64,000 bases of DNA from Protoeuglena noctilucae (taxonomy: Eukaryota), in the NCBI GenBank assembly GCA_958009085.1, contig OY253677.1:186001-250000 (forward strand). The letters run 5' to 3'. The notes beneath the pieces were generated by a model that saw nothing but the letters and a program-made list of their open reading frames with translations, did no database searches and was not told the DNA's origin. Positions 459-64,000 of this stretch are shown piece after piece; the first letter of the stretch is position 1; each line of letters begins with the position of its first letter. The position numbers and the translations under genes are program-made.

Positions 459-3400
459 ATGGGCAAGGTGAGGCTGAGGTCCGCCTTTATAACCACGCGC
501 ATTGATTGTGCAGGATACCGGGAGCTGTCGGACGTCGGAAGGCACGCCGGACGCGCGCGATTTCAACCAGCCTGGGTGGTCCCACCCCACGGCCCCTCGT
601 CGCGACCCGCGACCCTGCGTGCCCGCAGAGACCTCCCAAACGCTCGGTTGAGCCTCCTCTGGGCGTGCGGGGCCTCGAGTCCTACTATGCCGCCGCCGGC
701 GGCCTCTTGCGTGGCCAGCAGGGGCACAGCGTGGACACAGGCCCTCGAGTTGGAGCTGGAGCACCCGCGCCGGCGCCCCAAGGTCAGACTGGCGGGTGCT
801 GAAATTCAACTGCTTTGCGCCATTGCTCGGTGGCCACCGTTCCGTCGCAAACGTCCCAGAGTGGTTCTCCCATCCCCGCCGCAGTCGGTCGGGACGCTGG
901 GGCGGCAGATGCTGGTATCCCCGCGTCCCCGCGCTTGGGGAGTAAGCGGGCCGCGTCGGCGCAGGTGGTGGGCGATTTGCGGGCCACGCTCGCCGTCCCC
1001 CAGCACCCCGCGTGCAGCCAGGAGGAGCCCGTTGTGACGTGGCAGGAGGCACGCCCGTGGGCTGGCGGAGCCGCCCATGCGTCCAGCAGCCCGGCCAAGC
1101 GGCTGCGGACGGCTCTTGGGGTCGGCCCGTGGGTGGAGCAGCCTGTCAGGGCCGTGGGACCTTTGAAAGCCACGCATGGCTCCCCAACCCGTGCCACCAC
1201 GGCAGTGGATGCGCCTGCCGAGGGTCGCTGGGGACGGCGTCCCGCCCCTCACCACACCGGCGTCTCTCCCGACGGAGCCGGCGTTCGCAGCCCCGTTGAC
1301 CGCGCCGGGGCCGCGCTTGGCGCGGGCGGGGGTGCCGCGCCGGGTAGCGCGGGAAGGGGGGACCTTTTGCGGGTGCTAGACGCGGTGGAGCGGATGGTGC
1401 GGGAGGGGCAGGAGGTGGACGAGGCGACGCTGCACGAGGTGAGTGTGTGTGGAGGGGGGAGGGGTTGTATCGATGAGAGCGAGGCAGTAGTGGTGCTCAT
1501 CGCGACACAACCAGGCTGCTCTGCCCTCGCAGCTTGGCTCGACTATTCTGCACTTCGGGGACGTGGTGACGGGGCAGACGCCCCCGGAGCATGCGGATGA
1601 AGAAGGGAAGGAGAATGTGCCGCCCTCCGCGGCGGATGCATCGGGTGGTGAGGTGGGGGAGCAGCTGGCATGTGCGACGGGGAGAGGCATGGGACCATCG
1701 CAAGACTCGTGCACGGCGTCGCGGGCGTGCCGGGCCGTGCAAGGGCTGTCAGCGGGGGCACACGGGGGCTCGCAGGCGCACTCGGGGGTCCCGCATGCCT
1801 GTGGGCCCGACAGGGGCGGGGCGGGGTCCCAGAAGCCACGGGTGTCCTTGGGGACGGTCGACCGGCAGTTACTGGTGAGTAGCTGCGCGTGGATGGGGCG
1901 TGCTGCGGGGTAGATGACTACCTGTCCGCAACACGCGTCCCTGCGCTCTGCCCCGACACAGGCGTTGATGGAGGCGGGGCTGCTGGACGGGCCGCTGATG
2001 GGGGGCACCGGGACCGCGCCACCCAGGGAGTGCGACAGCGGCAGGGCCTCCACGGCCACCGCAGCCACGCAGGCAGTTTTGCCCGCCCCTGCTGCGCCGC
2101 CCGTGCACCCCCGCCCGCGGTCGCCGCCCCCGCACTTCTTCGCCAGAGCGGCCAAGGCTCTGCCGGAGACCGCGCCGTTCGCACCTTCTTCATCCGCGCC
2201 GCCACCTCGCCCCTTCCGTCCGCGCTTCCCGCCCCTCTCCGATGTCAGAGTGGTGGTGGAGTCGGTGGAGGGGCCGCCCGGGGGGGACCGCCTGCTGGCG
2301 TGCGTGGTGGAGGCCACGGGGGCACGGGTGCACGTGGCTCTGCGCGGGTCGTGGGGCGACACCCCCGTCGAGCCGGGGGACGCCTGCCACGTGCTGCCGC
2401 CCGGCTGCCTGGGTAAGGACGGGGACGGGTGAGCTGGGCGGGCTGGCGTGGGCCTCGCTGCGTCACTGCCGCGACTGGCCCTCGCAGATCCCGACGCCGC
2501 GGTGGAGCGAGAGGGTGGTTTGATACGCTGGCGGGCGACGGGCAGCCGCGAGGACCCCTGGGCGGTGTCGGACGGGGGGGGGGCGCTGGTGCTGCTGCCG
2601 GACGCGCTGGTGGCGGGGACCAAGGTCGCCAGCAGCTACTGGTGAGGCAATGCATGGTCGAATCGGCTCACGCGGATGGGCCGCCCCGGGCTGTGCCGCG
2701 AGCAGTCTGCTGCCCTGCCCTGTGCCCCAGGTGCATGCGGCGTGCGGTGCTGGAAGACCGAGCGCAGTTGACGGAGCGCAACGCCCGCGCGGCGGCCGGG
2801 ACGCTGGTGCACGACCTGTTTGAGGCGGCCCTGGTCGGTGGGGGGGTGCCGGAGCCGGCCGAGGCGTGGGTGCGGCGGAGGGCGGTGGAGATCCGGGGGA
2901 GGCGGGCCGAGCTGTTATTCGAGGCGAGGGCGCATGAGTGAAAGCATCGTGCTATGCGAAAGGCCCGGGGAGGGTCGGATTCTGAGCCGTAGGCATGCCG
3001 CTGGTGGGGCGAGCGATGCGCGAAGTGCCTTGATCCCCTCCTTGCTGCAGAGCGGTCTGTCGGACGCGGATGCCCACCGCGCCATCGCAGCCGCGGGCCC
3101 TGCGGTGGCTTGCTTCTCCCGCGCGTGCCTGGGGGGCGGGGAGTTGGGCCCCGGTGCTTCGCTGCGGGGTGCGGTGGTGGAGGATGTAGAGGAGGCGGTG
3201 TGGGCGCCGACGGTGGGGCTGAAGGGGGTGCTGGACGCGACGGTGCGGGGGGCGGTGGTGGAGGGGAGGGAGGACGTGGGGGGAGGGGTGCTGGCGGTGG
3301 AGCTCAAGACGGGGTGGCGGATGATGCGGGAGCATTACACGCAGGCAAGGGGGGGCAGGGGATGTAGGTGATGCGGGAGCACCACACGCAGGCGAGGGGG

Positions 3401-6105
3401 GGCAGGGGATGTGGGTGATGCGGGAGCACCACACGCAGGCGAGGGGGGGCAGGGGATGTGGGTGATGCGGGAGCACCACACGCAGGCGAGGGGGGGCACC
3501 GAGGATGCGGAAGGGGCGCGTGCCTGGCTTGTCGCGAACTTCCTCTCCCTCTCACCTGACCGGCAGGTGTCCCTGTATGGCCTGCTCTTAGCCGAGAGGT
3601 ACGGCGTTGACGCGTCGCGCGCCTCGCTGCTGGTCTACCTGGGCGGGGAGGGGGGTGGCTTGACGACGGAGGCGGTGCGGATGGACGCGGGGGCCGTGGC
3701 GCAGATGCTGCAGCGGCGCAACGAGGTGGCGCACGCCGCGAGGGTGGCACGGAGGGGCGGGGGGCTGCCGCCTGTGCTGGGCGGTGGCGATGCGTGCAAG
3801 GGCTGCTCGTCGCGCGCGGCGTGCGGCCTGGTCCACGCCGCGGAGGGGGGCGGGCCTGAGCCGTTCGGCCCCCCCGGGGCGCTGGCCGAGGTCGTGGGTC
3901 ACCTGTCCCCGACCCACCTGCGCTTCTTCGCCGACTGGGAGCGGCTGCTGACGCTGGAGGAGGGGTCCGCGCCCCCGCGGTCCCACGAGCTCTGGGCCGT
4001 GGAGGCGCGCGAGCGGGAGCGGGCGGGGGCGGGCGTGGCGGGGCTGCGGGCCGTGGGGAGGGAGCCGCGGGAGGGGGGCGGCGTGGCGTACCTGATGGAG
4101 CGTGCTGGGGGGGCGGGGGATGCGGGGCCCGTGGCGCTGGGCCTGGGGGAGCAAGTCATCGTGTCGGGGGACGGGGGGAGCCGGAACGTGGCATTGGTGA
4201 GAGGCTGGGGGGTGCTGCGTGTCCACAGCATGGAATTGCAAGGTGGCAGCTGTGACCACGACACCCGCCTCCTTCCGCAGTGCCACGTGGCCCGGGGCCG
4301 CCTCGCCCGCGCAACGAGCGGCCTGCTGGCGGTGGAGTGCGACCGCCCCTGCCGTGCCCTCGACCGCGCCCTGGGCGCCGGGGACGGCACCGCGCTGTGG
4401 CGCCTGGACGCGGACGCCATCTACGGCACCCTGGCGCGCGTGCGTGGCAACCTCGTCGAGCTCATGGTCGACGGCGGGGACAGAGCCGCGCGGCTGCGGG
4501 AGCTGGTCGTGGATTTGCGGCCGCCGGGGCCCGTCGATGCGGCGCAGGGAGGGGCGGCGGCGGCAGTGCCCGGTCTCAACGCGGAGCAGAGGGAGGCGGT
4601 GCGGGCGGCGCTGGGGTGCCGGGACTACGCGCTGGTGCTGGGCATGCCGGGGAGTGGCAAGACGCGGGCCATCGTTGAGGTGGTGCGCGCGGCGGCGGCC
4701 GCGGGGGGTGGCGTGCTGGTGGCGGCCTACACCAACAGCGCCGTGGACAACGTGGCGCTGCGGCTGGCGGCGGCGGGCGTGGCTTTCGTGCGCGTGGGCC
4801 GCCCCGCCACCACGCATCCCGGCGTGCGGCCCCACCTGCTGGGGTCGGCGCGGTGGCCGGCGCGCACGGCGGCGGCGCTGCGGGACCTCTCCGCGCGATC
4901 GCCACTGGTGGTGCTGGCCACGTGCCTGACGGCCGCGCAGAGCCCCCTGGTGCGGCGGCGGGCATTCGACCTCTGCGTGCTGGACGAGGCAGGGCAGGTC
5001 ACGCTGCCGGCGGCCCTGGGGGCGCTGCTGCGCGCGCGGCGCTTCGTGCTCGTCGGCGACCACTTCCAGCTCCCGCCCCTCGTGGCCAGCGACGAGGCGC
5101 GCGCGGGCGGCCTCGGCACCTCCCTCTTCCAGCGCCTCTGCGACGCCCACCCGGGGGCGGTGGCCACCCTCGCGTCCCAGTACCGCATGTGCGGGCCCAT
5201 CATGGCGCTCGCCAACGACCTCGTCTACCGAGGACAGGTGACGAAGGAGCAGAGCGACGCTGGGTAGACGGCCTGCCTGCCTGCGTGTCCCAACCCCCCA
5301 GGTCGCCGTGCCCGCAGCTGCGCCCGGGTTCGCCGGAGGTGGAGGCGGCGCGGCTGTCGCTGCGCCCGCCCCTCCAGCCCCGCGACCCGCTCCCCGACTG
5401 GGCCGCGCCCATTTTAAGCCCAGAGCCCCCAGTGCTGCTGGTGGACACCGACGCGGCGTCGGGGTTCGGGGAGTCGGCGCTGGAGGGCGGTGTGGTGAAC
5501 GCTGGGGAGGCGGCGCTGGCGGCGGCGCTGGTGGCGGCGTGGGTGGCGGCGGGGGTCAGCGCGGCGGGGGTGGCGTGCCTGACACCCTACCGCGCGCAGT
5601 CGGCCAGGATGGAGGCGGAGATCCGCGCGCGGCTGGGGAGCGAGGCCGGGGGGGCGGTAACGGGGGAGGGTTTGAGCATGACGGTCGACAAGGCGCAGGG
5701 GCTGGACAAGGAGGTGGTGGTGCTGAGGTGAGGGGCGGTGTGGTCGTTTGCGAGCAAGGACGTCTCGGATGCGTGCCCTGTGGTGGCTGAGTGACCCGCA
5801 TGCTTGCCTGTGATCGCTGAGTGAAGGCCGCTTCCTGCCCGCGTTGCCCCCGCAGCCTGGTACGCAGCAACCCGGACGGCCACGTCGGGTCTCTGCTGAC
5901 GGACTGGCGGCGGCTGAACGTGGCCATGACGCGTGCCCAGCGCAAGCTCGTGATCCTGGGGTCCCCGGCCACTCTGCGGCGGGGTGAAGTGCCCTTCCTC
6001 ACGGCGCTGCTGGAGGCCGCTGAGGCGCGGGGGGGGCGGTACGCCCTGCCAATGGGGGCGGACGGCCTGTCGCTTTCGCGGCTGGGCAGCAGCGCAGCCG
6101 CGTGA
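459..6105 (+). CDS. DNA2: DNA replication ATP-dependent helicase/nuclease DNA2 (multi-exon)
   Basis: Spliced motifs: [42 protein letters not shown], Fe-[11 protein letters not shown], Walker [54 protein letters not shown]. Core introns include 2924-3050 (GC), 3345-3566 (GC), ~4196-4280, ~5238-5317 and ~5728-5855. The 5' exons from ATG 459 are less certain. Stop is TGA. Confidence 0.93.
3322..3498 (+). repeat. 47-bp tandem repeat (~3.75 copies) spanning a DNA2 exon/intron junction
   Basis: Unit TGATGCGGGAGCACCACACGCAGGCGAGGGGGGGCAGGGGATGTGGG starts at 3322, 3369, 3416 and 3463. The first copy carries a few substitutions. Confidence 0.95.
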
Positions 6106-6274: not shown

Positions 6275-7715
6275 CTACAGCTCCTCTCCGTCGCCCCCGC
6301 TCTCTGGCGTGGACTGCGCCACCATGCGCTCCAGGTGCTCCGTCATGTCGGCCACCCCCTTCTCGGCCTGCTCGCGCGTCAGGCGGTTCTGGGGGCAGGA
6401 GACACCACTTGCCACATAAGCACTAAGCAGAGACGAGACCAAGGCCATCGTATGAACAGTAGCCGGTGTCTCGCCTGGGCCACGTGGACGAGGCGCATGA
6501 AGGAGGTGGCATCGATCCACTGGTCGGGGGCGAATCGCCCGCTGGGATCGAGCTTGAGGCCCAGCTCCTCGGCAATGTTAGCATCGGACGCGGCGGGGAA
6601 GCCCAGCTTCACGAGCGTGATGACTGCGTGGTGCAGTGGGGAGGGATAGCGGTCGGCCTGCATGCCCCTGCAGCGCGGGCACGGGCACGCCCAGCCGCTG
6701 GCACCGCCGAAAAGTCACCGGCATCGAGTGGCGCCTTGCCGTTCCTCTGCCCGGTGTTGGAGAGGGCGTCAAAGAGGGCCGGGAGGGACGCCCCGCCACC
6801 CGCATCGCTGCTCTGCTCGCTTGCAAGGCCGCTCATGTGGACCTCCCGCATGCTCAGCTTGCTCAGCGCCACGTTCTGCGTCAGACCTGACACGAGCTTG
6901 ACCCGGGACCGGGCGTTGAGCCACTTGCCCAGGTGCTTGAGAGGGTTGAAGTGCTTGAAGTGGCGGGGAAGGTACCCGTCCTCCAGGTTGGTGCCCGCAA
7001 CGGTGTCCATGTGGAATCGCTCCACTCCGCGGAACATGTCCATGAGGGCCTCGCGCATCACAGGCACGCACGTCTGCTCGATCATCGCGGCCCTGTCGTC
7101 CGACATGACGCGCGACTCCCCTTCCTCGAGCACCTGCGCGCCCGCACCAGGTGGCGGTGGGCAGGGCCGCCATGCCACGCGTCACGCACCAGCTGCCCGG
7201 CAGCGCTGCTGTCCAGCCTACCACGCATGCAAGCTGACTCGCGCCAACCCCCCTAACTCTCTTTCGCACCTTGGATACGAAGACGAGGATCTCCTCGGCG
7301 GGCATCTTGGCGAAGATGGACTGCGCGTAGGCACGGAAGTCACCCAGGCTCAGGTTGACGCCCTCCTCCACGCGCTCCATGATGAGCTCGGCCGCGCGCA
7401 GGGCTTCCCTGTACTGCCGCCGCATGCTGATCCCCACGAGGCAGGCGGCCATGATGCGCAGCTCCCTCGAGTCCACTGCGGGGGAATGCCAGCCAGAGTG
7501 CCTGAGATGAGATGACATGGCAGAGGAGGAAGGCGTCGCAGCCACCGTGAGCGCTCGTGCTGCGCCAAGATCCACACATGTGCGGCAAAGCAGGTCACTC
7601 ATCGCATAAACGCACCTGTCCCACTCCCGTCCCGATCGAACTTGTGAAAGAGGGCCTCAATCGCATCGTCGGCGTTGGCGTAGTCCCCGTCGTTGGCCTG
7701 TGCGGCAAGTGCCAT
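6275..7715 (-). CDS. EF-hand-containing protein (multi-exon)
   Basis: EF-hand LFHKFDRDGSGT|VDSREL is formed across an intron, and later exons have coding-like codon use. GC donor CAG|GCGAGA at 6474. The 3' end (TAG at 6275) is uncertain. Confidence 0.6.
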
Positions 7716-16777: not shown

Positions 16778-17897
16778 TCACAGGTGCAGCTTGGCCCGCA
16801 GGTCCGCATAGGCCACCACGCCCTCGAGCATGTCGTGCGTGGGGCCGACGAAGAAGGAGGGGGTGGCCTGCACGCCCATGGCGCGCGCCAGCTCCGACAG
16901 CGACTCCACCTCCTCCTTGTGACGGGCACTCTGGGGGTAACGAGCGAATGACGCGAGTCGGACACAGCAAGGCCGGCCCGGTCTCTCTCCTGGAGCTCAC
17001 TGCCCCTGTCCCTGCTCACCGTGAAGCACTGCACGAAAGACTCGATGTCAAGGCCGGCCTCCTCCGCCAGCCGCCGCAAGAGGCGGCCCGTGAAGACCGA
17101 CCCACCCTCGTCACTCCCCGCCATCGGCGCCTGGAAGAGCAGGTGCCGCATCTCCCAGTACTGCACCGGCGACACGTCAGGGGTGGACTGACGAGGACGG
17201 TGGCGCAAGCGCCGACCACGACCGGCCCATGGCAGCTGGGCTGTAGCTGTCGCGCAGCGCCTGGCCCTCGCCTTGTGCTGCTCCTGTGCGCACAGCGCCG
17301 CGTGGGCCGCCCGCAGAGAGTCGTCGTGCAGGAAGGCCACCGGGTGGGACTCGATGCGCACCTGCCCCGAGGCGCCGAACTCGCGCAAGAGCGGCTCCAT
17401 CGTCAGTCGATGTGCCTCGTGGCAGTGGTGGCAGAAGAAGTCCGTGAACTCGACCACGAAACGGTCGGACGTCTCAGGGCCCAGCGCGCGCCCCTCGGCG
17501 TGGAGGTAGCCCCGCGTGAAATGGATGCCTTCGATGGGTTGCTGCAGGCGGGGCCACGGAGCGGTGTCGCAGCGCTCGGGGGAGCAGCGGAGCGGGCCCT
17601 GCGACTCGCGCGCACCTCAGCGACCGCCCGGGTCGGGTACCCGCCCTTAATCTTCTCAAACTGCAGCCGCGACACCTCGTCCTCCTCTCCCGGCAAATGC
17701 GGGAGGGTCGCCAGCCATATTGGCATCAGGACCGCGGCGAGGACGGCCGCAGCGAGGAACACGTACGGGAGCCAGTCTGGGACCTCGAAGCCATGGCCGG
17801 GTGGGGCGGCATCGCCTCCGTCCGCGACGCCCTTCCTGACGCGTGGAAGATAGGCACTGGAATTAAGCGCAACGGGCCGGAAACCTGGCGAATTCAT
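16778..17897 (-). CDS. Membrane-anchored DsbA/thioredoxin-fold oxidoreductase
   Basis: TM segment YVFLAAAVLAAVLMPIWL, then VEFTDFFCHHC (CxxC), AAHAALCAQEQHK|YWEM and cis-Pro loop GVQATPSFFV. Three introns, one of them GC (17271-17161). Confidence 0.8.
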
Positions 17898-19677: not shown

Positions 19678-21638
19678 ATGTCTATTCCAATTCAGTCCGG
19701 GGGCGCGGAGGCAAGGAGGCGCGGCAATACGGACTTTCAGCTCTTCCCCGAGGGTCCCCAGCTCCGCGTGCTCCCGGAATGCCCAAAGAGTCTCCGCCGC
19801 ACCCGGTATCAGCTGGGGGACGTCACGCCCTTCGCGATGCACGAGCACACCCGCGCTGGAGACATCTTCACAGGCGACGACTGGCCCAGCCGTACGCAGG
19901 TCCTCGTCCGCTGCTTCGACACCCGCCACTTGTCCCCAGCCGCGCAGGCGGCGCTGCGGGGGTACGCGAGGGGCGTGCAGGCAGTCACGCACCGTGCCCT
20001 CCTCACGGCGTGGGTCATTTTCCAGGACGGGCCCTTTGCTGTCTTCCTGCATTGCCCCGAGCCAGGGGCCGTCCCCGTGCAGCAGTACATCCGCGAGCAT
20101 CGCGACAACTTGAGCGAGTGGGACGTGCTGCGGACCGTGGTGCTGCCCCTCTGCCAGGCGCTTACGCACCTGCACTCCAAGGGCTTCCTCTACGGCCCCC
20201 TGTCAGGTGCGCCCCGCGCCGTCCGTGCGTGCCAGAGACCATGGGTGCTATCCGTGGTGCCTTACCCTTCCCCATCGCCCCGTCTGCGCCCCCAGTCACC
20301 GACCTGGCCTTGGTGGATGGCCCAAGCGGCCCACGCCTCAAGATGGGCTGGGACCCGACGCCCATGCGGCTCTTCGCGATGCCGGGGCGCTGCATGATGC
20401 GGAGGGGGGGGCAGGCGCAGGCGGGGACGTCGTGGCTCGAGTCTCTGCCCCTGGACGACATGATGACGTGCATGCAGGGCCTCCCACTGCCGGCACCCGA
20501 GCTCTTCTCAGAGCCACGCCGCGTGGGCCCGGGGACGGACTCGTGGGGTTTCGGAGCGGTGGCGGGCCTCTGCCTGGGCCTGGGCGCCGTGCGGGTGTGG
20601 TCGAACGAGACGGGCAACACGCGCGCCGTCATCAAGCTGCCCCAGGCGCTGTCCTGGGAGAGCAAGGACCTCGTGGCCACCTGCCTGCACAGGCGAGGGA
20701 GGGAGGGGGCGCGACCCGGGCGCAGCTGGGGAGGGCGCCATGCGACCATGCGGCAGCTGTGCCACGCCCTGTTCCCTTCCTCGCCCCGCAGCCTGCCGTC
20801 GCAGCGTCCGACGCCGGCGGCGCTGCTGTCGCACGCTGCGTTCGACATCTGCCGGCCGCGGTCGGCGCTGGCGCGGCTGGCCCCGTGCCTGGCGCCGCGG
20901 GTGCGCAGGGACCCCCAGGAGCGCGTGCCGGTCAAGATCAACGCCACCATTTGCCGCAACCTGACGGACCAGGGTGAGGGGGCGAGGGAGGAGCGGGGGT
21001 CGACAAGCGGGCATGGGGGGTCGTCGGGGCGCACGGACAGGGCACGGGCATAGGCGATGCTGTTGGGACGACGCAGCTGGCCAAAGGCTGGCCACCACGC
21101 CCGCACCCCCGCAGCCACGGCCGTGCACAAGGTGTGGTCGCAAGCAGAGGCGGAGGCATGCAGGGTCGCTGGGCCACAGGCGGTTGCGCAAGAGTCAGAC
21201 GGGAGCCAGCGGAACTCCGTTGGGTCGGTGGACGCGGCGTTCAGCGCAGAGCTGGTAGAAAGCAACAACTCTCTCCGCCCGAGGCCCTCCTCCGCCAACT
21301 CCCTCTACTCCCTCATCAGCGCCTTCCCCGCCACGCCCGCGGCCGAGGCCACCGCCCGGGCCGTGACCGCCTCGGTGCACCAGGCTGCCGCGAACCTGGA
21401 GACCGTCGCGTCGCTGACCCAGGTGTCCGGGCCCCACCGCTCGGTGCTTGGCCGGCATTTCTTAAAAGTGGCGCTGTCCAGCCCCGGCGGCCCCTCGTCT
21501 CCGGGGGACAAGCGGGGACCGCGCACGGCCCCCAGGGACGCACCCGATACCGACACCCCCGGAAACGCGAGGCGCACGGGGCCGCCATCCAGCCAAAACA
21601 AGCAGATGAGGGTGTTGCCTGCCATCGGGGCGCTTTGA
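19678..21638 (+). CDS. Kinase-fold protein lacking catalytic motifs (pseudokinase)
   Basis: VVLPLCQALTHLHSKGFLYGPL (HRD position), PAPELF, DSWGFG, LVATCLH|SLPSQRPTPAALLSH. Introns ~20207-20295 (GT) and 20693-20791 (GC). The last exon is uncertain. Confidence 0.7.
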
Positions 21639-21751
21639 GCTTCAAAGCGGCCCGTGGCAGTGTCTTGTTTGAGCAGCGGGCTCCGTTCCGCTTGGCAGCA
21701 CGCGCAGGCGGCCCAGCACTAGGAGAGCAGAGCAGAGGGTCAGACATCATG

Positions 21752-23951
<2,200 letters not shown>

Positions 23952-24278
23952 TCACGTGCCCGATGAGGAGCGAGCAGCGCCCTGACACCGCGCGCTGCAC
24001 TCCCCTGGCGATGGCAATGCGATGATGATGCAAAGACTTCATCCGCCATACCCAAGCACGGTGAATCAGAAGCTGAAAACCTGGTCTGTCACCCCGCGAT
24101 GCTGTCAGGCAGGCGTACTGGCGAGATGGAGCAATCGCAGCCGACACCTCGCTGCCACGTCTCCAATCCGTGCACTCCCGACGGTTATATGTCACGCCAC
24201 GCTCCTTGTACCACAGCATAGCGGCGCGTTCGAAGTTCTTTTGACATCACCATTCCAGCGCCCCCGGTCATCTGAAAG

Positions 24279-26230
24279 ATGTTCGATGAGGGTCTGGAGA
24301 CTCTGACGACGCGGGATCAGGCGAGTCGGATGGTCCAGCACGTCGCGCTTCGCCGGGGCAGCCGTAACGCCCCACTTCACGCGCGTCTCCCGCAGGCGGG
24401 GCTGGAGCGCGAGGTCTGTTTGCTGCTGACGATGGTCGGGGGGCTCAGGCAAGGGCGTTGTGGGCCTGCCAGCGAGCGCTAGCCTGGGGGGGCGAGCATG
24501 TCCCGTGACCTGCACGCTCCTGAGTCGCAGCCCGGACCGCCTGGCGCAAGAGCTCCGGTTGCGTCGCGAGCAGCACGTGGTTTACCTTACCAAGAGCTTG
24601 GGCGCCCTTTCGGGGTCGTACGTGTCCCTGGACGCCTCGCGCCCCTGGATCGTCTTCTGGTGCCTCCACGGCCTGGCTCTGGTGGGCGCCCCCGCTGCCA
24701 TTCTCGCTGCCCTGCGCTCCTGGAACACTGCTCATGACGCCGGTGGCCAACTTGACCCCCTTCATTGCAAAGAGTTTCTGCCGCCATCATCGCCCTCACC
24801 CCCTCCCCCCTACCAGCTGGGTGTGGAGGCCACTTCCCTCGAGACTCCCTCCACGGAGGCGATTGTGGAATTTCTGTCCCAATGCCAGCACCCCGAGGGC
24901 GGCTTCGGTGGCGGCCCTGGGCAGTTGGCGCACACGGCCACCACATACGCGGCACTGGCGGCGCTGGTCACCGTGGGTGGCCCCGGGGCGCTGGGGTCCA
25001 TCGGCCGGGAGTCGCTCATGGCCTTCCTGACCAGGATGTGCGTGGAGGACGGGGAGGGTGGCATGCGCGTGCACGAGGGCGGCGAGGTGGACATCCGGGC
25101 GTGCTACACCGCCGTGGCGGCGGCAGCGCTGGCGGGGCTGGACGTGGGGGAGCTGGGGCGGCGGGGGAGGGTGGCGGCGTATGTGGCGGCGTGCCAGACG
25201 TGGGAGGGGGGCCTGGGGGGAGAGCCGGGGAACGAGGCTCATGGGGCATACACTTACTGTGGGCTGGCGTGCCTGGCCTTGCTGGGGGAGGCGGGGCGCC
25301 TGGACCTGCGGGCCCTGGCGCAGTGGTGCGTGCGGCAGCAGGGCGGCGTGGAGGGCGGGTTCCGCGGCCGCACCAACAAGCTCGTGGACGGGTGCTACTC
25401 GTTCTGGCAGGGGGCGCTGATGCCCCTGCTGCAGCGGGTGTGGCCCGAGACGGCCGCGCAAGGGGGGGTGCCGCGGGGGCCGGGGCTGCAGGGGGATGCG
25501 GCACGGGCGGCCCGCGCGTGGGCGGCGGCGGAGGCGGTGCTGTGTGACGCGCCCCTGGGGGAGGTTGGGGCGGACGTGCAAGCGGAGAACCACTTGATGT
25601 GGGTGGCGGGGGAGCGGGCGGCGCGCGGCCACGCGAGCGCAGCGCCGCCGGCCGACGCGGACGCGGTGCGGCGGGCGCAGGAGGACGTGACGGTGGCCGA
25701 CAGCATGGCGCCTGAGGTGTTCGCCCAGTGCGCCGTCCACTGCAGCACGCGTGAGGGGCCAGGGCTGCCGTCTGTCGTTGCCCTCGCAACACGCTGCAGC
25801 AGCCGATGACCATCTGTCGTCGCCCACGCAGGCATGGAGGCGCGGGATCCCCATGACACGCCCGTTTCCACGAGGCGCTGGGCGGATGCCGCGGCACTGC
25901 AGGGGTGGGTCCTGGCCTGCTGCCAGCTGGAGAACGGCGGCCTCCGCGACAAGCCGGGCAAGCATCGCGACCAGTACCACACGTGCTACTGCCTCTCCGG
26001 TCTGAGCCAGGCGAGGAGGTCCTTGGAGTGTGTGCGGCTGGGCTGTAACTACGCACTGCGCTGCGGCACGGCCACCCCTCCCGTCTCCTCTCTGCTGACC
26101 CCAGTCTCAGCACCACTCCGGACTCTGCCTTGGTCCCGAAACCAACGCCCTCTGCCGTGCCGACCCCGCCCTCAACGTCGTGGAGACCAAGCTGGCCGCC
26201 TCCAAGGCCTTCTGGGCCGGACGCGCATGA
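24279..26230 (+). CDS. FNTB: Protein farnesyltransferase beta subunit
   Basis: LDASRPWIVFW, GGFGGGPGQ, GEVDIRACY, EAHGAYTYC, GRTNKLVDGCYSFWQ, LRDKPGKHRDQYHTCYCLSGLS. Five introns, three of them GC (24321, 24449, 26011). Confidence 0.93.
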
Positions 26231-26356
26231 CGCTAGGCGCTCGCATCTGGTCACTCGCAGATAATAACGCGCGCTTTCAAAACGGTCTGATGACGATAAT
26301 GAGGATGCGGACGCAGCGTCACAGTCACGCGCTGGCAGCACCGGGGACCGCGCCCC

Positions 26357-27399
26357 TCACGCGGCGATCTTCTTGGCGATACCCGCGAAGTACTAACCGT
26401 GGTGGGCAGCAAAGCGCAGCTCCATGTCGGACGGCTGGCGGGAGCCGTCCGCGCCCGCGAATGTGCCAGCGCCGTAGGGGCTCCCCGCGTGGACCGTCGC
26501 CGTGTCGAACATCTCGGCGCCGAAGCTGTACCCGGTGGGGACGTAGATCATGCCCATGTGCACCAGGAAGGGGAGAGTGGTCAGGGCAATTGTCTCCTGG
26601 CCGCCCTGGGGCGTGCCCGTCGACACCACGATGGTCGCCGGCTGCAAGCGGGGTGGGGTAGGTGCTCCCGTGAGAACTACCGACAGGAAGAGGCAGGCGG
26701 CCGATGCGTGACAACCCATGGAACTCGCCTTGCCGGTCATGGCGCCCTTGGACCACAGCTGCCCGCACGAGTCGAAGAAGGTCTTCATTTGCGCGGGCAC
26801 CATGCCGTAGCGGCCGTTGCACCCGAACACCACCGCGTCGTAGGTGGCCATGGTGGCCGCGTCGATCACGGGGTCGCTGGCCTTGGGCGGCGCGTGCATC
26901 TTCTCCAGGATCTCGGCGCTGAGCGTCTCGGCGACCTGAAAGACGTCCGCGTGGCAGCCCTCGACCGAGTTGATGCCCTCGGCGACCTTGTGGGCCATCT
27001 TGGCCATGTGGCCGTACGTCTGCGGGCGCCCGGACGTCGCGATCCGCGTAGGTGCGATGCAGAGGGCAGGAACACCTCGAGATGGTTCCGGCGTGTCGAG
27101 GGTGGCGGGGGAGCGCGGATGCGGGCTGAAGTGGGGTCGCGCCCCTCTCACCGAGTAGTAGATGACGGCGACCTTCATCTTCTTGACTTCCTGGGGCTGC
27201 TCAGCCTTTGGATGGTCCTCCTCGGGGGGCGGGCTCCTGCGACGCAAGGGGCGGGCGAGAGGCTTCCGCTCGTTCACCAGACGCGTCAAGGTTACTGGAG
27301 GAAAAAGCACAACGGACGGATCGCCAAGTATCGTCGACGCAGCGAGACTTACCTGGTGGGATGGCGCGCTGAGGACCGGCGGATACCGCAGCAACTCAT
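26357..27399 (-). CDS. wrbA: NAD(P)H:quinone oxidoreductase, WrbA/FQR1 flavodoxin-like; contains an in-frame TAG at 26393-26395
   Basis: VIYYS|TYGH, QVAETL, GRYGMVPAQMKTFFD, TGK|PA (GC intron 26728-26642), STGTPQGGQET, GSPYGAGTFAGADGSRQPS, then HHG*YFAGIAKKIAA-TGA. A probable first exon begins MSCC at 27399. Confidence 0.9.
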
Positions 27400-33335: not shown

Positions 33336-33479
33336 GCCAGGCGCACGCCGCAAGGACCGGGAGGGGTGTGACTCACAGCTGCGCTGCGCTGGCATTCTTG
33401 TTGAATTTCAACCACCGGCGCGATCGCTCTCTGGCATGGTCTCACATGTCCGGCACCGGTCACAACCGCCCGCGCCACC

Positions 33480-39400: not shown

Positions 39401-40059
39401 GAGAAGATGTTGGCCAGCTTGGCCCCGTAGCCATTGCGTCCCCCCGTCACTTTCTTCTCCGCGTCGTCGTAGTTGGACGATGTGAGAAGGTGGCCGAAGA
39501 TGAGCTCCGGCACGTAGACTCCCTCCTCCTGCAGTCTTGACGGGGCACGCAAGCGTGAGCCCGCTGGCCTCCCCGCCCAGGTGGGCGCGAGTCTGCACGG
39601 CTGCCCTCGCCTTGTGGACCTCCACGGGGATCCCGTCGCCGTTGTTGAACACGCGGATCGTGTTGGTCTCGGCGTCGATGTCAACGCGCACTGTGTCCAT
39701 CGTGGCGTCGCGCACCTGCGAGCAGGGGCCCACCAGCGTCCCGCCGTGCGCATGGGACGCAGCGGCGGTAACTTCCCGGCGGCGGAACCGACCTTGTTGT
39801 CCGCGGCATTCACGAGGATCTCGTCAAAGATCTTGTACAGCGCCGGCGTGTAGGTGATGGTGCGGTGCACCAGGCCCCGGGCGCCGTCATGCACCCACAT
39901 CGCCTGCGTCTGCGGCTCTGTGGAGCCGACGTACGTGTCCGGCCTCAGCAGGATGTGCTCCAACTGTGTCTTCTTCTGGTACACCTCCTCGATGGTCTTG
40001 GACCCCTTGCCCCGGGCGGCGGGGACGTTCACGTCCCGACCACCCAAGAGCGACGCCAT
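33480..40059 (-). CDS. TOP2: DNA topoisomerase II (about 21 exons)
   Basis: [102 protein letters not shown]. About 20 introns, four of them GC (39610, 39017, 37692, 35772). Confidence 0.98.
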
Positions 40060-53304: not shown

Positions 53305-54798
53305 TCACGGAAGCTCCGTGACGATGAGAGGAGGAACCAGCGAGTCCATGGGAGGCGACAGAACGGCGGAGATGTTCTCCACAAGCCGCAGCTCCCGGGC
53401 CTGGCACACGGGCGCCGTCCTGCATGGGCGAATCCGGCCGCATGTGGGCGGAGGAGCAACGGCCCGCGTCTCCTCGCCGCAGCGAAGGCGCTGCACTGGC
53501 CACCGAAGCCCCGTGTGTCCGTCTCACCGCGTGGTCGCGGACGCGGCTTGACCAGCGCGAGCGGCCGTGTCTCGCACGGCGGCCTGGAGCGTGGCTACGG
53601 CCCGCGTGAGCGCCCCAATCATGTCACCCGGCAAATTGTGCAGCCACGCCTGCGAGGAGGGCATGCAAGCACACGTCGTGGCGGCGCCGGACCAGGCCGG
53701 CTGCGTAGCTGCCAGTGATGGGGGATGCGGCTCGCCAGGAGGAGGGCGGAGAAAAAGTCCCCCGTGCCCGTGAAGTACGCAGGGATCTTCGGGAAGCGCA
53801 CGGTGCACCGCTGCGGCTTCCCAGGCGACTGGGGCTGCCTGGTCGAAGCAAAGACCACCAGCTCGTCGCCGCCGCTCCCTGACGCGATTGTCATGGACGT
53901 GATGACCACTGCGGACGGTGAGAGGGACGCGGGCCCGAATGACGGCGGACGCAGATGGCCCAGGAGACTCGGCAGGGCTGGGCCCGCAATCAACTGGTGC
54001 CTTCGCTGCAGCCAAGTCCGCCACCCCTGCAATGGTAGGCACCTGTGTGGGGTCCCCGCGCGTGGAGGGCATCGCAAGCCTGCTGCGCGCTCGCCAGCGA
54101 CGTGATTTGCACGCCGGTCAGCAGCTCTGCCTCGAACTGGTTGGGCGTCATGATGGACGCGGAGGGGACTGCCTTGTCGCGGTAGGTTGCCACCAGATCA
54201 GAGGAGACATACTGCGACGATGGGGATTTGGACAAGGTGCGGGCGACTGTGTGGGCGAGGGAACGGCACCCCCGTGGCGCACATGCAAGAGAAAGCCACG
54301 CACCAGGCGCCCGTCGTCGCCCATGACCGGATCGCACAGATACTCGAAGGACGTGTCTCGCGAGCAGGACGCCCTGCGGGGGCGGCGGACATCTGCCGGC
54401 TCGCATCCATCCCTGCGCGGGCTTGCCTTACGATCGGGAGCGCCTTCCGCGCCGTCAAGTCACCGCAGCTCCTGCGCGACAGCGACGGCCTGTTCCAAGA
54501 GCGACACGGAGCCGATGTAACCCGTCAGCATGTGCGTGTAGTCCGCGAGCAGCCCGTTCTCACGCAGGCCGCCGAGGATGTCAGCGAGCTGAGTGCCCCC
54601 GAGGGCAGGGACGCCCCCGGAGCGGAACACTGGGTACCCCGTGTGGTTGGAGAACTGGACCGAGTTGACGGGATCCACGTTGAAGCCCAGGACCTGGAGC
54701 GGGAGAACCGCGCACTTGTTTCCCACGTAGCCCGAGACGACGTGGGACTGGATGCTCAGGACCCTCGGAGGACGACCATCATCGGGCGCGCCCCGCAT
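53305..54798 (-). CDS. PDXK: Pyridoxal kinase
   Basis: RVLSIQSHVVSGYVGNK, NSVQFSNHTGY, LTGYIGS, CDPVMGDDG, TPNQFEAELLTG, FTGTGD, ELRLV. One intron needs the GC donor CTG|GCGAGC (53735-53650). Confidence 0.95.
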
Positions 54799-55096: not shown

Positions 55097-56822
55097 ATGC
55101 ACCGCTCCGTCGCAGGGGTCCACCAGGCATGGAGCCGTCCTCGTGCGTCTTTTGCGCGCTTGCCGGGCCATTTGGCGCGACGCATAGCAGTAAAGGCTTC
55201 TCCCTGCGATAGCGCCTGGCAATCCGCCGGTTTGGCCCTCGGTATCGACGCAGAGGGCTACGTGACCATTCAGAGCCCAGGGCGGGCGCCCGAGCACCTG
55301 GTATCGCTCGTAAACGCTGCACGGGAGCGCGGCCTGCAGCTTCCTCTAGCACTCTCCTTCCCCAAGGTGCTTCCTTGATTGCCATCCGCGTAGCGACCTA
55401 CCAGCCTAGGGCCTGCTGCAGACTGCCTGCATGCACCCGCCCCCAGGCCGCGAGAGCTTCCGCTGAAGAGCTCCTGAGCGTTTTTCTCGACGCATTGGCG
55501 GACCTGCCGGTCACGTGCACGCTGGCCTTCCCTCTCAAATGCAACAGCGACCCCGAGCTCATCGCCGTGAGCGGCTGGCCCCGCGCGCGGTGCCCTTCGG
55601 TCAGACCCGCTGGGCAGCAGCCTCTCGCACCCGGGCCTTTCTTTGGCCCCCACAGACCCTGGCGTCCACTCCTGGCGTTTCCTTCGAGGTCAGCACACCA
55701 GGCGACGTGGCGCAGCTCCTGTCTGCCCACCGCGAGGGGCTGCCGCTCAGCGGTCGCACCATCACGTGCCACGGGGTGAAGACCGCGTCGTACGTCCGCG
55801 CCCTGCGGGAGGCGCTCCTCCTTGGCCTCGACCTGACCGTGTACGTCGAGAACGATTGGGAGGTCGCAACGGTCTGCGAACTCGCCCACACGCACGAGGC
55901 CAAGGGCGCGTTGTCCCTCGGCCTGCGCCTCATGGCGCCATTTGCGAAGGAAGATGGGTCGATCTCCGCGGAGGCAGCCAAGTTCGGGCTTGCTTTCGAG
56001 GACGCCGTCGCAGCGGCCCTTCACGTCCGGAAGGCGGGCCTGGAGGACGCCCTGCGCATGGTGCATGTGCACGCGGGCAGCAACATCCAAGGCACGCGCC
56101 TTGGACAGGGGCGTGTGTGCCTGCGACCGTCGCCGCCATTACATGAACAGCCGCAGTTTCTCGTTCCTGCAGACGCTGACCACATGTACCGGGCGGTCCG
56201 GTCCGCGGTCGAGCTGTTCCAAGAGCTGCGGTGCCGCCAGGGGTTCCACGGGCTGGCGGGCGTCAATCTCGGCGGCGGCCTGCCCGCTGGGGCCGCGTCG
56301 CGACCGGATGCGCCGGGGGAGGGCGGCCCGCCGACTGCGCGTGGCATGGCCCGCACGGCTGCCGAAGCGCTGGCGGGGATTCGGGAGGCACTCGGCCCCG
56401 GCGGCGTGGAGGTGGTGGTCGAGGCCGGCCGCGCCGTGGCCGCACATCACGTGGCGATTGTGGTGGAGTGCGTGGGCGTGCGAGGCATGGGCACGTGTGG
56501 TGGCACGAGCCCGTTGGCCATGGCCATGTGCGACTTCTCCGTCTTCAGCGCCGTCCCGGACGCGTGGGGCCTCGGAGAACGCTTCCTGGCTCTCCCCCTG
56601 TGCGGGCTGCACCGCCCCGTCGCCTGGAGCGCCCGCATCGCCGATGCGACGTGCGACTCGGACGGGGTCCTGCCGGGCACCGTCGACTTCCCGGAGGGGT
56701 TCTTCGATCATGGGGACGCGCTCCCCCCCTGGGTCGGGGTTTTTGCGGTCGGCGCATACCAGCGCATGCTGGCGGGCCGGCACAACAACATCGGGCCGCC
56801 GACGCTCGTCCACTTTCACTGA
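55097..56822 (+). CDS. Divergent arginine-decarboxylase-like PLP enzyme (fold type III)
   Basis: GLQLPLALSFP, AFPLKCN (PLP Lys), CHGVK, KFGL, HVHAGSNI, NLGGGL, EAGRA, SVFSAVPDAWG, ADATCDSDG, GAYQ..GRHN. Introns ~55366-55446, ~55567-55655 and probably 56092-56172 (GC). Confidence 0.8.
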
Positions 56823-56827
56823 CGCCC

Positions 56828-60249: not shown

Positions 60250-63200
60250 ATGGCCGGGGAGGACATGGGCGCCAGCCAGGTCAACTCGGAGGTGTCCCTC
60301 CCGGAGGGCCGCTCCTTGAAGGCGTCGTTCCATCGCCAGACGCGGGCGATTTCCGCAAGCAGTGGATCTTCCAATGGCGCAACCGAGGGCAAAACTTCTT
60401 GTGCGTTGCCGCGCCGATGCTGCAGCGACGCCCTCCGGCTCGGTGCATTAGGGTCGCGAAGGATTCCACGCTACGCCTCCCGCAGCCTGCTCTTCACCCC
60501 TATCTTCTTCTGCATATCCATGCTCATCGGCCAGAAGATCGTGAACATTCTCCTGTCCGGATCGGACCTCCACTGTGGCCAGAAGTGCACCGTGTGCTGC
60601 AACGACGCGGCCAAGACGGACTGCTACGACGTGACGGGCGACGCCTACTGCGACACCACGTACCAATACTGGTGAAATGCGGCACCTCCTGCACTCGCTT
60701 TTGCTTCTAAGGGGCAGCTTCTGAACGGCACTGCGCGTCGCCTGCTCCGGCGACAGAGTTGGCATAGCCACGAGGGCCCATACGTGCCACGCATCCCGGC
60801 TCAGCACACCGAGGGCTTCGTCCCCGCAGCAAGGAGCGTGACCCCAACATCTCGGGCATCGCGTACTCGGACCCCTCCCAGGCCGGCTTCTGCGCCGTGG
60901 AGTACCCTGCGCCGTGGCCCGTCGTCTACCACGTCCCTGAGGTGCGCGCTGGTGCCCAGGGTGCTGACTAACCCTTGCCGAGACGGGTTGCCCCAGGATC
61001 AGCCCTCTTGCCCCTCGCAGGCCAGCTACCGCGCCTCCCCGGACCGCCCGGCCATCGACATCCTCTACACGGGCAGCGACGCGACCCAGGCCCAGAGCCA
61101 CACGGCCAACATGATCCCGGCCTTCGCCGGCGCCTCCACGACGTCGTCGCCCAACGGCCAGGACCTCGCGACGGCCATGACGACCTCGGCCATCACCACC
61201 GTGACCGCCGACGGCCCCACGGTGTACGCGCTGAACAAGGGCATTGCGCCCGCGGTCATTGCCCAGCCGTCGCTCGCGCCCTTCCTGGCGACGGTGGAGC
61301 AGACCCCGGGGGCGTTGACGTATCAGGAGGACAAGGCCTGGACGGGGCTGTCGAAGAAGAACGCCGTCGGTGTGGTGACGAACGACTGTTCGGCGCTGGT
61401 CGCCTGGGCCGAGACCCAAGTCAACGCCACCACTTGGAACGGCTGGAACTATCAGGTGCGCGGTGGTGATACTGTGCCGTCTGCGGTGGCAGACGGACGC
61501 GCGACGCGACGCAAGAGCGGGAACCCTCCGTGCGCTCTCAGACGGACGAAGACCAAGGGGAGACCTACTGGACCACGGTCCTGGATGCCAAGTACCTCTC
61601 GTGCATTGACGCGTCCCCCAAGGAGCTGGCGTCCGCGTCAGGCGAGTCGCACGGCCGGGACGTAGCATGCGTAGCTCACACCTGAGGAACGGACCCTGAG
61701 AGCTTTGATCCGCCTGGCATGTCCCAGACTGTACCGTGGGAGCCCACGCCACCTTGTCGTGCCCCGCAGCGGTCAATGCGGCGCTCTTCTGTGGCTACCG
61801 CCAGGCGTCGGGGTCGTGCGGGCGGAGGCATCCGGAGGCCGAAGAGTACCCGGCAGCGTTCGACTGGCGCGACTCGGGGCCATCGCGTGCAGCCTTCCGC
61901 GTGTGGCTCAACACGACGACGGACAGCAGCAACAATGGCGCACCCGTGGTGCCCCTTCGCGTCCTCAAGCCCTTCGACCTCGCCCTCCAGTCCTGGCTCA
62001 AGACCCACCTGGGCCCCGAGTACTCCGCCACCACGGTGAGGGCAGAGACGCTGGCAAACTTGCCTGCCTACTCTCCTCACGCTTCGTCTCAGGTCTTGGG
62101 ACAGCCGCACACAGCTGACTGTCCAACGATTCGCCGCGCGCATCCACTGTCTGTTTGTAGTGCGCTCTCTGCTGGACTCTGCTGGACTCTGCTGCAGCAT
62201 CGCGTGGCTTGGCTGGGGTCCTGCGAGTGGCTCTCGCTTGCCGGTCCGCACGTCTCTATGACGCACCCCATGCGGCCCCTGTTCCGTCCGCAGCTGTACA
62301 TCAAGGAGATGCCCAAGGGGGCGAGCGATCTGCGGCTGGACTTCTCGTCCCTCCTGGGCCCTCTCTTCTTCCTCTGGGTGCTGGGACTGCCCTTCCCGGG
62401 TGAGGCAGCCACTGGGTGTCGGATACCGACACAGGCGCGTGTCCCTATGCTTGTCCCTCTGCTTCCTGTGGGTGCTGGGCTTGCCCTTCGGCGCTTCGCC
62501 AAAGCGTGCTTCGCTCCGCCCGCCCCCGCAGTCATGTTGCTGTCGTTGGTGTACGAGAAGGAGAACCGCCTGCGCATCATGATGAAGATGCACGGGTTGT
62601 CGGACAACAGCTACTGGATGGTTTCGTACATGTGGTGGATCATGATCACCATCATCTACTCCCTGTTCCTGCTCATCTTCGGCAACATCATCAACCTCAA
62701 CTTCTTCCGGGACAACGACTTTGGCATTAAGTTCATCTTCGTCATCGCGGCGCAGCACGCCCAGGTCGCCACCGCCTTCCTCCTGTCCTCCGTGTTCAAG
62801 TCCAGCCGCACCGCCACGATCTTCGGGTACATCTGGATCCTCGGGTCGGGCATCTTCGCCGCAAACATCATGAACACGTTCATCGACGAGGGGCGCAAGT
62901 GGGTCCCGGCCATCGAGCTCATCCCGACCTTCGGCATCTACCGCGGCCTGTACGAGATGTCCCAGTACGCATTCCGCGGCCAGTACCGCGGCGGGAAGGG
63001 CCTCACCTGGTCCAACCTCAGCGACCCCAACAACGGCATGGGGCGAGTCATGGGGGTCTTTATGCTCGAGTTCTTCGTAGCCATGCCCCTGGCGTGGTAC
63101 CTCGAGCAGGCGAGTGGGGGAGTGAGAGAGTGGAGGGGCAGGAGGGGGCATTGTTGCCTGGGAAGGCACACCAGCGTCCCCACCTTCTCGCCTGGCCCCG

Positions 63201-64000
63201 CAGGTGGTCGACGACTCCACGGGCGTGCGCCGCCACTGGCTCTTCTTCCTGCAACGCAAGAGGAAGGACGGGTTCGAGAAGGACACCGCGACCCCCACCG
63301 TTACCGCGAGGGAGCTCCTGGGCGGGGAGGATGTCATGGCGGAGCGTGAGCTTGCCCACAACCTGAGCGAGGTGCGCGGATGCCTGCGTGCCATGCCAGG
63401 CACAACGTGTCGGTGTTAGCGCTCGACTGGTCTTGATGACTGGTGGCATTGCAGGGCCCCTGTGTTAGGTTGCTGTGTCTACCTTGTCTGCAGGAGGACG
63501 CGTCCGAGTACCCCATCATCATCAAGGACCTCCACAAGGTGTTCCCGGGCCAAGACGGCAACCCTCCCAAGATGGCGGTCAAGAGTCTGTCCATGGCTGT
63601 GCGGCGCGGGGAGGTGCTGGGCCTCCTGGGGCCCAACGGGGCGGGTGAGTGGGCGAGGAAAGGGAGTCACGGGTTGCGATGTATGCCAACCACGCATGCC
63701 GGGCCAGCTCACGTGCGAGGTTCAGTCGTTGCAGTGCCTTGCCCGGGCGTCCTCTGTTTGGCAGCCCTGCAGCCGTGCCCCGTCCTCGCCCTCTGGACTC
63801 CCTCTCTCTGCCGCCCTTGTTTGCAGGCAAGACGACGTCCATCCACATGATGGTGGGCTTCCTGGAGCCGTCGGGCGGCACGGCGCTCGTGGACGGCATG
63901 AGCATCCGCGAGGACATGGACGCCGTCTACAGCAGCATGGGGGTATGCCCTCAGCACGATCTCCTCTGGCACAGCCTCACGGGCCGGGAGCACCTGGACT
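60250..64000 (+). CDS. ABC transporter subfamily A (plant ABCA-like), partial at window end; apparent frameshift near 60350
   Basis: FRKQWIFQWRN, LVYEKENRLRIMMKMHGL, ELIPTFGIYRGLYE, AWYLEQ|V, Walker A LLGPNGA|GKTT, GVCPQHDLLW..LTGREHL. GC introns 61642-61769 and 63110-63203. Confidence 0.93.

Follow-up and report, generated by a model that had tools for sequence, protein, structure and literature searches.

The 64-kb window analysed in this study (64,000 nucleotides (nt) of contig OY253677.1, with a G+C content of 0.65-0.72) harbours intron-rich genes of the green lineage, among them DNA2, a thioredoxin/DsbA-like gene, FNTB, a FMN_red/WrbA-like gene, a cullin gene with 10 introns, TOP2 with 15 introns, a pyridoxal kinase, an Orn/Arg decarboxylase-like gene and an ABCA-like gene. 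The property that concerns us here is found at the 5' end of these introns, about one quarter of which start with GC instead of GT and end with AG. This confirms an observation of a preliminary description of the sequence, which had listed 22 GC donors and assigned them to about 20 of about 80 introns, a fair estimate in light of the 5 of 15 introns counted in RNA, the 9 of 35 in a set verified by RNA or homology and the 19-23 of 78-84 in a de novo parse of gene structures. All 22 donors read as claimed in the window, 19 of them as GCGAG, two as GCAAG (3345, 24449) and one as GCACG (56092), and at 20 sites the intron is preceded by AG, the exceptions being 39017 (CG) and 53735 (TG). GC is the only dinucleotide that replaces GT in the window, where others, including GA, do not rise above background.

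That these donors are real is reflected in RNA joints and in the scoring of junctions against homologues. Five of the 22 sites are defined by RNA, four by homologues with clear and four by homologues with narrow margins, four by the boundary of a protein profile or solved structure and five by the parse alone. The RNA originates from three marine metatranscriptome runs (X1, X3 and X4), which contain 0.40-0.49 of the words sampled from positions 24000-33900, whereas DNA runs of 'organism A', of which X10 was used, contain all of them. Contigs of the four runs were aligned to positions 20500-40400, which include 14 of the 22 claimed sites, and for each joint every placement permitted by the ambiguity of the alignment was enumerated. 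Homologues were employed for TOP2, FNTB, the cullin gene and DNA2, where a junction scorer considered all in-frame GT...AG, GC...AG or AT...AC pairs and the absence of an intron between adjacent ungapped tblastn segments, and rated the resulting peptide against a set of homologues, using fixed anchors and ungapped high-scoring segment pairs. Exon boundaries were located by searches of single exons against Pfam and solved structures; Pfam searches with stop-free open reading frames (ORFs) yielded an inventory of genes but were too coarse for junctions and a filter for coding ORFs by G+C at the third codon position (GC3) was too noisy. Finally, gene structures were parsed de novo on both strands by a Viterbi parser with a three-periodic second-order coding model trained on tblastn segments, a null model for introns, donor and acceptor matrices taken from 35 verified introns and intron penalties of -9, -12 and -15. 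The introns and their support are listed below, with a slash marking the exon-intron boundary and 'parse' denoting recovery by the de novo parser.

2924..3050, plus strand: GC-AG intron (GCGAG), DNA2-like; 874 against seven homologues, next 852, best GT 846; parse; length fits the Pfam Dna2 profile
3345..3566, plus strand: GC-AG intron (GCAAG), DNA2-like; decisive against seven homologues, 576 versus 401; parse
6389..6474, minus strand: GC-AG intron (GCGAG), gene of unknown family; de novo parse only
6624..6739, minus strand: candidate GC-AG intron (aacg/GCAAGGC ... CACCACGCAG), outside the earlier list; de novo parse only
17161..17271, minus strand: GC-AG intron (GCGAG), thioredoxin/DsbA-like; parse; Thioredoxin_4 positions 5-76 and 124-146 separated by a 47-residue exon; DsbA alignment reaches residue 88 of 90
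20693..20791, plus strand: GC-AG intron (GCGAG), weakly kinase-like gene; de novo parse only
21984..22075, minus strand: GC-AG intron (GCGAG), gene labelled UGM in the preliminary description; RNA contigs of X1, X3 and X4 join 21982 and 22075
24321..24395, plus strand: GC-AG intron (GCGAG), FNTB N-terminus; parse at -9, at -12 donor kept with wrong acceptor; no homology support
24449..24530, plus strand: GC-AG intron (GCAAG), FNTB N-terminus; parse at -9 only; next exon opens the Prenyltrans profile at position 1
26011..26104, plus strand: GC-AG intron (GCGAG), FNTB; RNA joint from 26006 to 26101 in three runs, not in the DNA run
26642..26728, minus strand: GC-AG intron (GCGAG), FMN_red/WrbA-like; RNA joint from 26641 to 26729 (CT..GC on the plus strand) in three runs, not in the DNA run
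27880..28162, plus strand: GC-AG intron (GCGAG), cullin; first but marginal against homologues, 475 versus 468; parse
28468..28588, plus strand: GC-AG intron (GCGAG), cullin; 1076 versus 1035 for an in-frame GT at 28462, 6 nt upstream; parse
29515..29680, plus strand: GC-AG intron (GCGAG), cullin; RNA joint from 29511 to 29678 in three runs, GC..AG sole placement
31039..31176, plus strand: GC-AG intron (GCGAG), cullin; RNA pieces 30690-31036 and 31175-31560, GC..AG sole placement
35670..35772, minus strand: GC-AG intron (GCGAG), TOP2; 1271 against eight homologues, best GT 1096; parse
37614..37692, minus strand: GC-AG intron (GCGAG), TOP2; 2127 against eight homologues, best GT 1943; parse
38926..39017, minus strand: GC-AG intron (CG/GCGAG), TOP2, ambiguous; 1737 versus 1701 for GT at 39013, 4 nt downstream, with acceptor GAG at 38922; parse
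39529..39610, minus strand: GC-AG intron (GCGAG), TOP2; 1908 against eight homologues, best GT 1800; parse
53650..53735, minus strand: GC-AG intron (TG/GCGAG), pyridoxal kinase; solved pyridoxal kinases align to the last residue of exon 53736-53906 (chain 186-244); parse at -9 and -12 but not at -15
56092..56172, plus strand: GC-AG intron (GCACG), Orn/Arg decarboxylase-like; PF02784 (Orn_Arg_deC_N) positions 38-165 before and 170-247 after; parse from -9 to -15
61642..61769, plus strand: GC-AG intron (GCGAG), ABCA-like; de novo parse only
63110..63203, plus strand: GC-AG intron (GCGAG), ABCA-like; ABCA4 aligns to the last residue of exon 62534-63109 (chain 672-859); parse

Each of the 15 joints counted in RNA has one canonical placement, which is GT-AG in ten and GC-AG in five cases. 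The latter correspond to the claimed donors at 22075, 26011, 26728, 29515 and 31039, where the RNA of runs X1, X3 and X4 is spliced exactly at the GC...AG boundaries. Within the ambiguity of the alignment, no placement at a GT is possible at these five junctions, which answers the concern, raised in the preliminary description, that nearby GT donors might be used instead. The same description had considered an error in the consensus sequence. Between 20500 and 40400, spliced forms were not seen in the DNA run X10, whose contig shows 0 differences to the window at a depth of 126.6, thus illustrating that the C at position +2 is no consensus slip, with the reservation that X10 is possibly the same data from which the assembly was built. 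RNA is sparse over TOP2, where the word depth drops to 0-4.3 beyond 35108, and the absence of a joint was given no weight. A contig with a loose end at 20813, whose last 12 letters match nowhere in the window, is silent on the donor at 20693.

The scoring against homologues extends these results to further sites. The 15 well-defined introns of TOP2, scored against eight homologues, comprise 11 with GT and four with GC donors. The donors at 3345, 35772, 37692 and 39610 clearly outscored their best GT competitors, whereas 2924, 27880, 28468 and 39017 ranked first but narrowly; the same procedure identified firm GT introns in DNA2 (three) and in the cullin gene (two). The homologues of DNA2 are divergent, with 33-53% identity, and a chain run did not resolve 2924. 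In case of 39017, the GT alternative at 39013 would require a GAG acceptor at 38922 and, since all 35 verified acceptors are CAG, the GC reading is favoured. The searches against solved structures gave no match for the exons following 17271, 20693, 53735 and 63110 and only noise for the exon preceding 20693. Two near-identical public proteins, P0121 (99%) and P0241 (100%), were rejected as evidence for splicing, as both are unspliced ORF calls on contigs and not transcripts; P0241 contains an Ala (GCG) at the codon of the 31039 donor.

Two further observations concern the genes investigated by homology. In FNTB, an in-frame GT-AG intron of 135 nt without stop codon (24682-24816, plus strand) is read through by gapped tblastn and by ORF callers, with P0121 being such an unspliced call, and it is flanked by the Prenyltrans profile, of which positions 1-41 precede and 46-241 follow the intron. 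In DNA2, a 47-bp tandem repeat of 3.8 copies with 96% matches (3322-3498, plus strand) has as its unit the exon end together with the GC donor (CACGCAG/GCGAGGGG). Its copies 2-4 reside within intron 3345-3566 and offer three spare GC donors, of which the one at 3486 is in frame with the donor in use.

The de novo parse benefits from the strong contrast in composition between codon positions (G+C of 0.60-0.69, 0.40-0.47 and 0.93-0.95 at the first, second and third position, compared to 0.69 in introns), which makes the reading frame easily visible. At a penalty of -12, the parser recovered 34 of 35 introns in the verified set and all claimed donors except 24449 (21 of 22), which appeared only at -9. 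Genes scoring at least 45 contain 55 GT and 23 GC introns, those scoring at least 34 contain 65 and 25, respectively; 19 of the latter 25 carry GCGAG or GCAAG and measure at most 400 nt, which amounts to 19 of 84 introns or 23%, a share that would be slightly raised by the claimed sites in poorly parsed genes (24321, 24449, 53735 and 56092). Since the GC matrix was trained on AG/GCGAG-like sites, the parse is partly circular and a control with decoy dinucleotides was added. When eight decoys with the same flank matrix were offered beside GC, each was used for 0-5 introns while GC stayed at 21-24. Decoys offered without GC received 8-22 calls, a misleading control because the decoys then rescue real GC introns. 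The parser has its flaws, which include the merging of neighbouring genes, low-scoring antisense models and zero-length exons near 53650. Between 43000 and 50000, many open frames on both strands without Pfam match gave rise to low-scoring, unstable models, and the census is unreliable in this region.

A further argument is provided by the heptamer AGGCGAG, which is found 32 times in the window, a number reached in 0 of 100 shuffles, compared to 16.5 +/- 3.9 expected copies. The claimed donors account for 17 of the 32 copies, which matches the excess of about 15, and the excess of the heptamer is thus made up by the donors.

The anatomy of the donors was investigated in the verified set of 35 introns (26 GT and nine GC), none of which was selected by motif. 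In the GC donors, G at positions -1, +3 and +5 and A at +4 are invariant, and A at -2 is found in eight of nine cases. The GT donors are degenerate (GTGAG, GTGCG, GTGAC, GTAAG and others), with A, C and G at +4 in 14, 9 and 3 cases. Flanks of the type AG/..GAG are found in eight of nine GC but only one of 26 GT donors (Fisher 3.3e-6) and, if confined to introns verified by RNA, in five of five compared to none of ten (3.3e-4). On average, GC donors match the textbook consensus at 5.67 of seven positions and GT donors at 4.50 (Mann-Whitney 2.9e-4). The preliminary description had proposed that C at +2 is offset by strong pairing of an AG at the exon end, which agrees with the presence of this AG in 8/9 GC compared to 12/26 GT donors, and the contrast extends to GAG at +3 to +5 (9/9 compared to 9/26) and to A at +4 (9/9 compared to 14/26). 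Conversely, donors with AG/G.GAG flanks contain GC and GT at a ratio of 8:1 in the verified set and of 17:5 in the parse.

In other respects, both classes of introns are alike. All 35 verified acceptors end with CAG after a C/T-rich tract, and there is no significant difference in the pyrimidine content of the last 20 nt (0.64 in GC and 0.62 in GT introns), in median length (92 and 100 nt) or in the share of phase-0 introns (13/19 and 33/65). A comparison of 86 introns all against all yielded seven pairs with matches of 13-18 nt and no intron family; matches to other parts of the window were limited to three introns, in one case owing to the intron's own tandem repeat, and the likeness among GC introns stops after about +6. 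None of the verified GC donors shows the ATCC-type 5' site of the minor spliceosome, with 9/9 reading GCGAG, and a scan of the window with Rfam retrieved 0 families, hence no small nuclear RNA (snRNA). The window thus displays traits of U2-type GC-AG introns, as manifested in the exact removal from GC to AG at five junctions, the stronger donor flanks and a YAG acceptor with pyrimidine tract.

The RNA contigs also provide insight into neighbouring genes. The FMN_red/WrbA-like gene contains an in-frame TAG (26393-26395, minus strand) in both the window and X10, followed by 11 codons (YFAGIAKKIAA) and a stop, whereas the three marine RNA runs carry T for A at plus-strand position 26395, turning TAG into AAG (Lys), the sole base difference listed over 20 kb. 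This TAG may represent a nonsense allele in the strain that was sequenced, or it could be subject to editing or read-through, alternatives that are not separable because RNA and DNA stem from different samples. A single RNA contig (25536-27019) spans the convergent 3' ends of FNTB (plus strand, stop at 26228-26230) and of the WrbA-like gene (minus strand), whose transcripts thus touch or overlap in a stretch of about 165 nt. A gene located between those of cullin and TOP2 (31838-33335, plus strand) has four GT-AG introns confirmed by RNA and may encode an alternative oxidase, judging by exon peptides such as LETIAGVPGMM and EEAENERMHL.

Abundant GC-AG introns are already in print for other algae and we thus do not deal with a new kind of splicing. 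The share of such introns amounts to 39.6% in Aureococcus, 22.2% in Micromonas pusilla and 7.7% in Chlorella sp. and is linked to genomic G+C, and its cause is called 'an enigma' (Iwata & Gotoh 2011, PMC3033335). A later account lists 14-17% in Aureococcus strains, about 14% in Pelagomonas and 0.32% in Aureoumbra, whose G+C is lower, a relationship considered 'likely attributable' to GC content (bioRxiv 10.1101/2024.10.30.620910). With at least about 65% G+C and more than 10% GC-AG introns, the window conforms to the pattern of enriched GC-rich algal genomes. It resembles Aureococcus anophagefferens and Pelagomonas calceolata in the very high GC content (69.5% in Aureococcus), short introns of about 100-180 bp and a GC-AG share of 14-40% (PMC3033335; bioRxiv 10.1101/2024.10.30.620910). 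In contrast to the window, these pelagophytes are stramenopiles and have few introns, with 0.4-0.9 per gene reported for Aureococcus and 0.19 for Pelagomonas. Micromonas pusilla CCMP1545 (Mamiellophyceae) belongs to the marine green algae, and its genome of about 65% GC shows a comparable GC-AG share of 22.2% (PMC3033335). The preliminary description had named Emiliania, Aureococcus and dinoflagellates as lineages with high fractions, and the green-algal precedents M. pusilla and Chlorella sp. have to be added to this list. M. pusilla is neither the source of the window nor a close relative, since no match to named proteins exceeds 61% identity and Mamiellophyceae are absent among the matches listed, and its 0.91 introns per gene (PMC13213038) are far below the window, which contains no introner-like family. 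Similarly, the compact prasinophyte genomes described in the same work (Pseudoscourfieldia marina with 57% GC and 0.2 introns per gene, Mamiellophyceae and Chloropicon) do not resemble it. Dinoflagellates and Emiliania/Gephyrocapsa huxleyi are cited in the literature for many non-GT donors (PMC11347168; PMC4028052; PMC5029490), unlike the window, where GT is replaced by GC alone and decoys including GA stay at background.

The window also resembles the ordinary U2-type subclass of GC-AG introns, which makes up about 1% in animals and plants and shares the same boundaries and donor positions nearer to consensus, although it is about 20-30 times less frequent. GC donors are reported, as Thanaraj and Clark are said to have noted in 2001, to have stronger flanks, and the flank rule for C at +2 observed here is the general rule of GC-AG introns. 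A link to alternative splicing has been proposed for the ordinary subclass, for which there is no evidence in the window. In mammals, 298 conversions from GT to GC were found compared to 40 in reverse (Churbanov et al. 2008, PMC2490688).

The assignment to a green alga in the preliminary description is borne out by TOP2, FNTB and DNA2, whose best matches among named proteins are from green algae and land plants, chlorophytes as well as streptophytes, with at most 61% identity and no near relative among them, and by the presence of a PsbP-like gene, a placement that relies on best matches and not on a tree. A Prasinoderma-like alga would agree with the GC content and with the roughly equal resemblance to both of these groups, which is a lead rather than an established assignment. 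Prasinoderma coloniale has 69.8% GC and 'equidistant' best hits (PMC7455551). Nephroselmis pyriformis, with 64.2% GC, is another possible candidate. Our literature search found no report of abundant GC-AG introns in a prasinophyte other than Micromonas, and the stem 'splic' is absent from the main text of two papers on P. coloniale (PMC7455551, PMC11884799).

Taken together, we consider it probable that the described sites belong to ordinary U2-type introns of a very GC-rich green alga, in which C is tolerated at +2 in the context of consensus flanks and has been fixed by GC pressure. If the flanks are fully complementary to U1, one C-A mismatch at +2 would cost little, rendering this position near-silent. 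The pressure towards G and C, which is evident at silent sites (GC3 93-95%), could then fix T-to-C changes at strongly flanked donors, whereas weakly flanked donors would keep their T, and no change in an snRNA would be needed. Near-neutrality at +2 combined with GC pressure would thus lead to AG/G.GAG donors that are mostly GC and to donors with weaker flanks that retain T. The junctions, the contrast in flanks, the base composition and the absence of a repeat family are demonstrated here, whereas the neutrality of +2, the direction in which it changed and the kind of drive are inferred.

Several points weigh against this interpretation. The intron share was determined in a single 64-kb window and not in a genome. 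The count in RNA includes 15 of 49 joints (13 from the joint table and two as contig pieces), and the environmental metatranscriptomes and the DNA of 'organism A' are different samples, so that the base at +2 of the RNA-producing cells follows from an identity of 95-100%. Of the 22 sites, 13 rely on narrow homology margins, on coincidences of boundaries or on a parser with a GC matrix from nine AG/GCGAG-like sites and are thus partly circular, and six of the 25 GC introns called by the parser at the gene-score threshold of 34 look false. With respect to the proposed drive, the correlation of GC-AG share with G+C was found to be weak outside three species, and Micromonas RCC299, with 64.1% GC, has only 2.7% GC-AG introns (Iwata & Gotoh, PMC3033335). 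In the possibly related P. coloniale, mutation accumulation has revealed a mutational equilibrium of 53.3% GC (PMC11884799) which, if applicable here, would assign the drive to biased gene conversion or selection instead of mutation. These figures suggest that factors other than GC content may contribute.

Among the alternatives, a changed spliceosome that is blind to T or C at +2, whether by its U1 5' end, the U6 ACAGAGA box, a U1 snRNP (small nuclear ribonucleoprotein) or a Prp8-type protein, survives best, although we regard it as unlikely. It would account for a GC-AG share 20-30 times above the usual value of about 1% (1.3% over 61 species, PMC3033335) and for the 8:1 preference for C at strongly flanked donors. 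It would also accommodate the tenfold difference between M. pusilla and RCC299 at similar GC, for which GC content alone is insufficient, and base modifications or proteins of the U1 snRNP have indeed been proposed by Iwata & Gotoh (PMC3033335). However, the near-perfect flanks required by GC donors are expected if normal U1 and U6 read the base at +2, but not if this base were irrelevant. Moreover, the U1 5' end is canonical (AUACUUACCUG) in both Aureococcus and Micromonas pusilla, although their GC-AG introns amount to 39.6% and 22.2%, respectively (PMC3033335), and by this precedent an altered U1 or U6 is not needed. The preliminary description is right that the GC donors are real, but the relaxed recognition of +2 that it had proposed overstates the data, since C is found at +2 almost only where all other contact positions are at consensus.

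Much less likely is an artefact, in which junctions were mis-modelled and a nearby GT is used or the assembly contains C for T. Plausible GT alternatives within 4-6 nt exist at two sites (39013 for 39017 and 28462 for 28468), about 16 AGGCGAG copies are expected by chance in DNA of 70% GC and the parser makes some false GC calls. Nevertheless, the five RNA junctions admit no GT, the independently built X10 contig is identical to the window over 20 kb at a depth of 126.6, the surplus of about 15 heptamers corresponds to the 17 copies at donors and decoys gain only 0-5 introns, so that this explanation is largely refuted for nine sites.

Introner elements are known from Micromonas pusilla and Aureococcus, the best-known GC-AG-rich genomes, and mobile elements of this kind that carry their own GC splice site might have spread through the window, as hinted at by the tandem duplication of one GC donor region (47-bp unit, 3.8 copies). 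The lack of any family among 86 introns, with seven pairs of 13-18 nt, and the end of the likeness among GC introns at about +6 render such an origin as improbable as an artefact. U12-type introns processed by the minor spliceosome can carry non-GT termini, but their involvement is barely conceivable given that 9/9 verified GC donors read GCGAG instead of the ATCC-type 5' site (PMC3033335), that 35/35 acceptors are CAG after a C/T-rich tract and that a share of about 25% far exceeds any reported load of minor introns.

Collectively, our study adds an intron-rich case from the green lineage to the few genomes in which GC-AG introns are common. Gene finders that allow GT only, or that assume a prior of about 1% for GC, would mis-model about one intron in four in this window and hence most multi-intron genes, as illustrated by TOP2, the cullin gene, FNTB and DNA2, which carry two to four GC introns each. 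The split between strong flanks with C and weak flanks with T provides a simple quantitative prediction for the entire genome. More tentatively, and with considerable doubt, the window might represent a deep-branching or unsampled marine green lineage, with a genome-wide share of at least a quarter GC-AG introns in an intron-rich genome, the highest among green plants and algae, and with C as the preferred base at +2 of full-consensus donors (8:1 here). If this were true, the trait would have arisen independently for a third or fourth time and could serve to test whether GC pressure is sufficient by itself, and the alga would offer a natural system for how U1, U6 and Prp8 read the base at +2.

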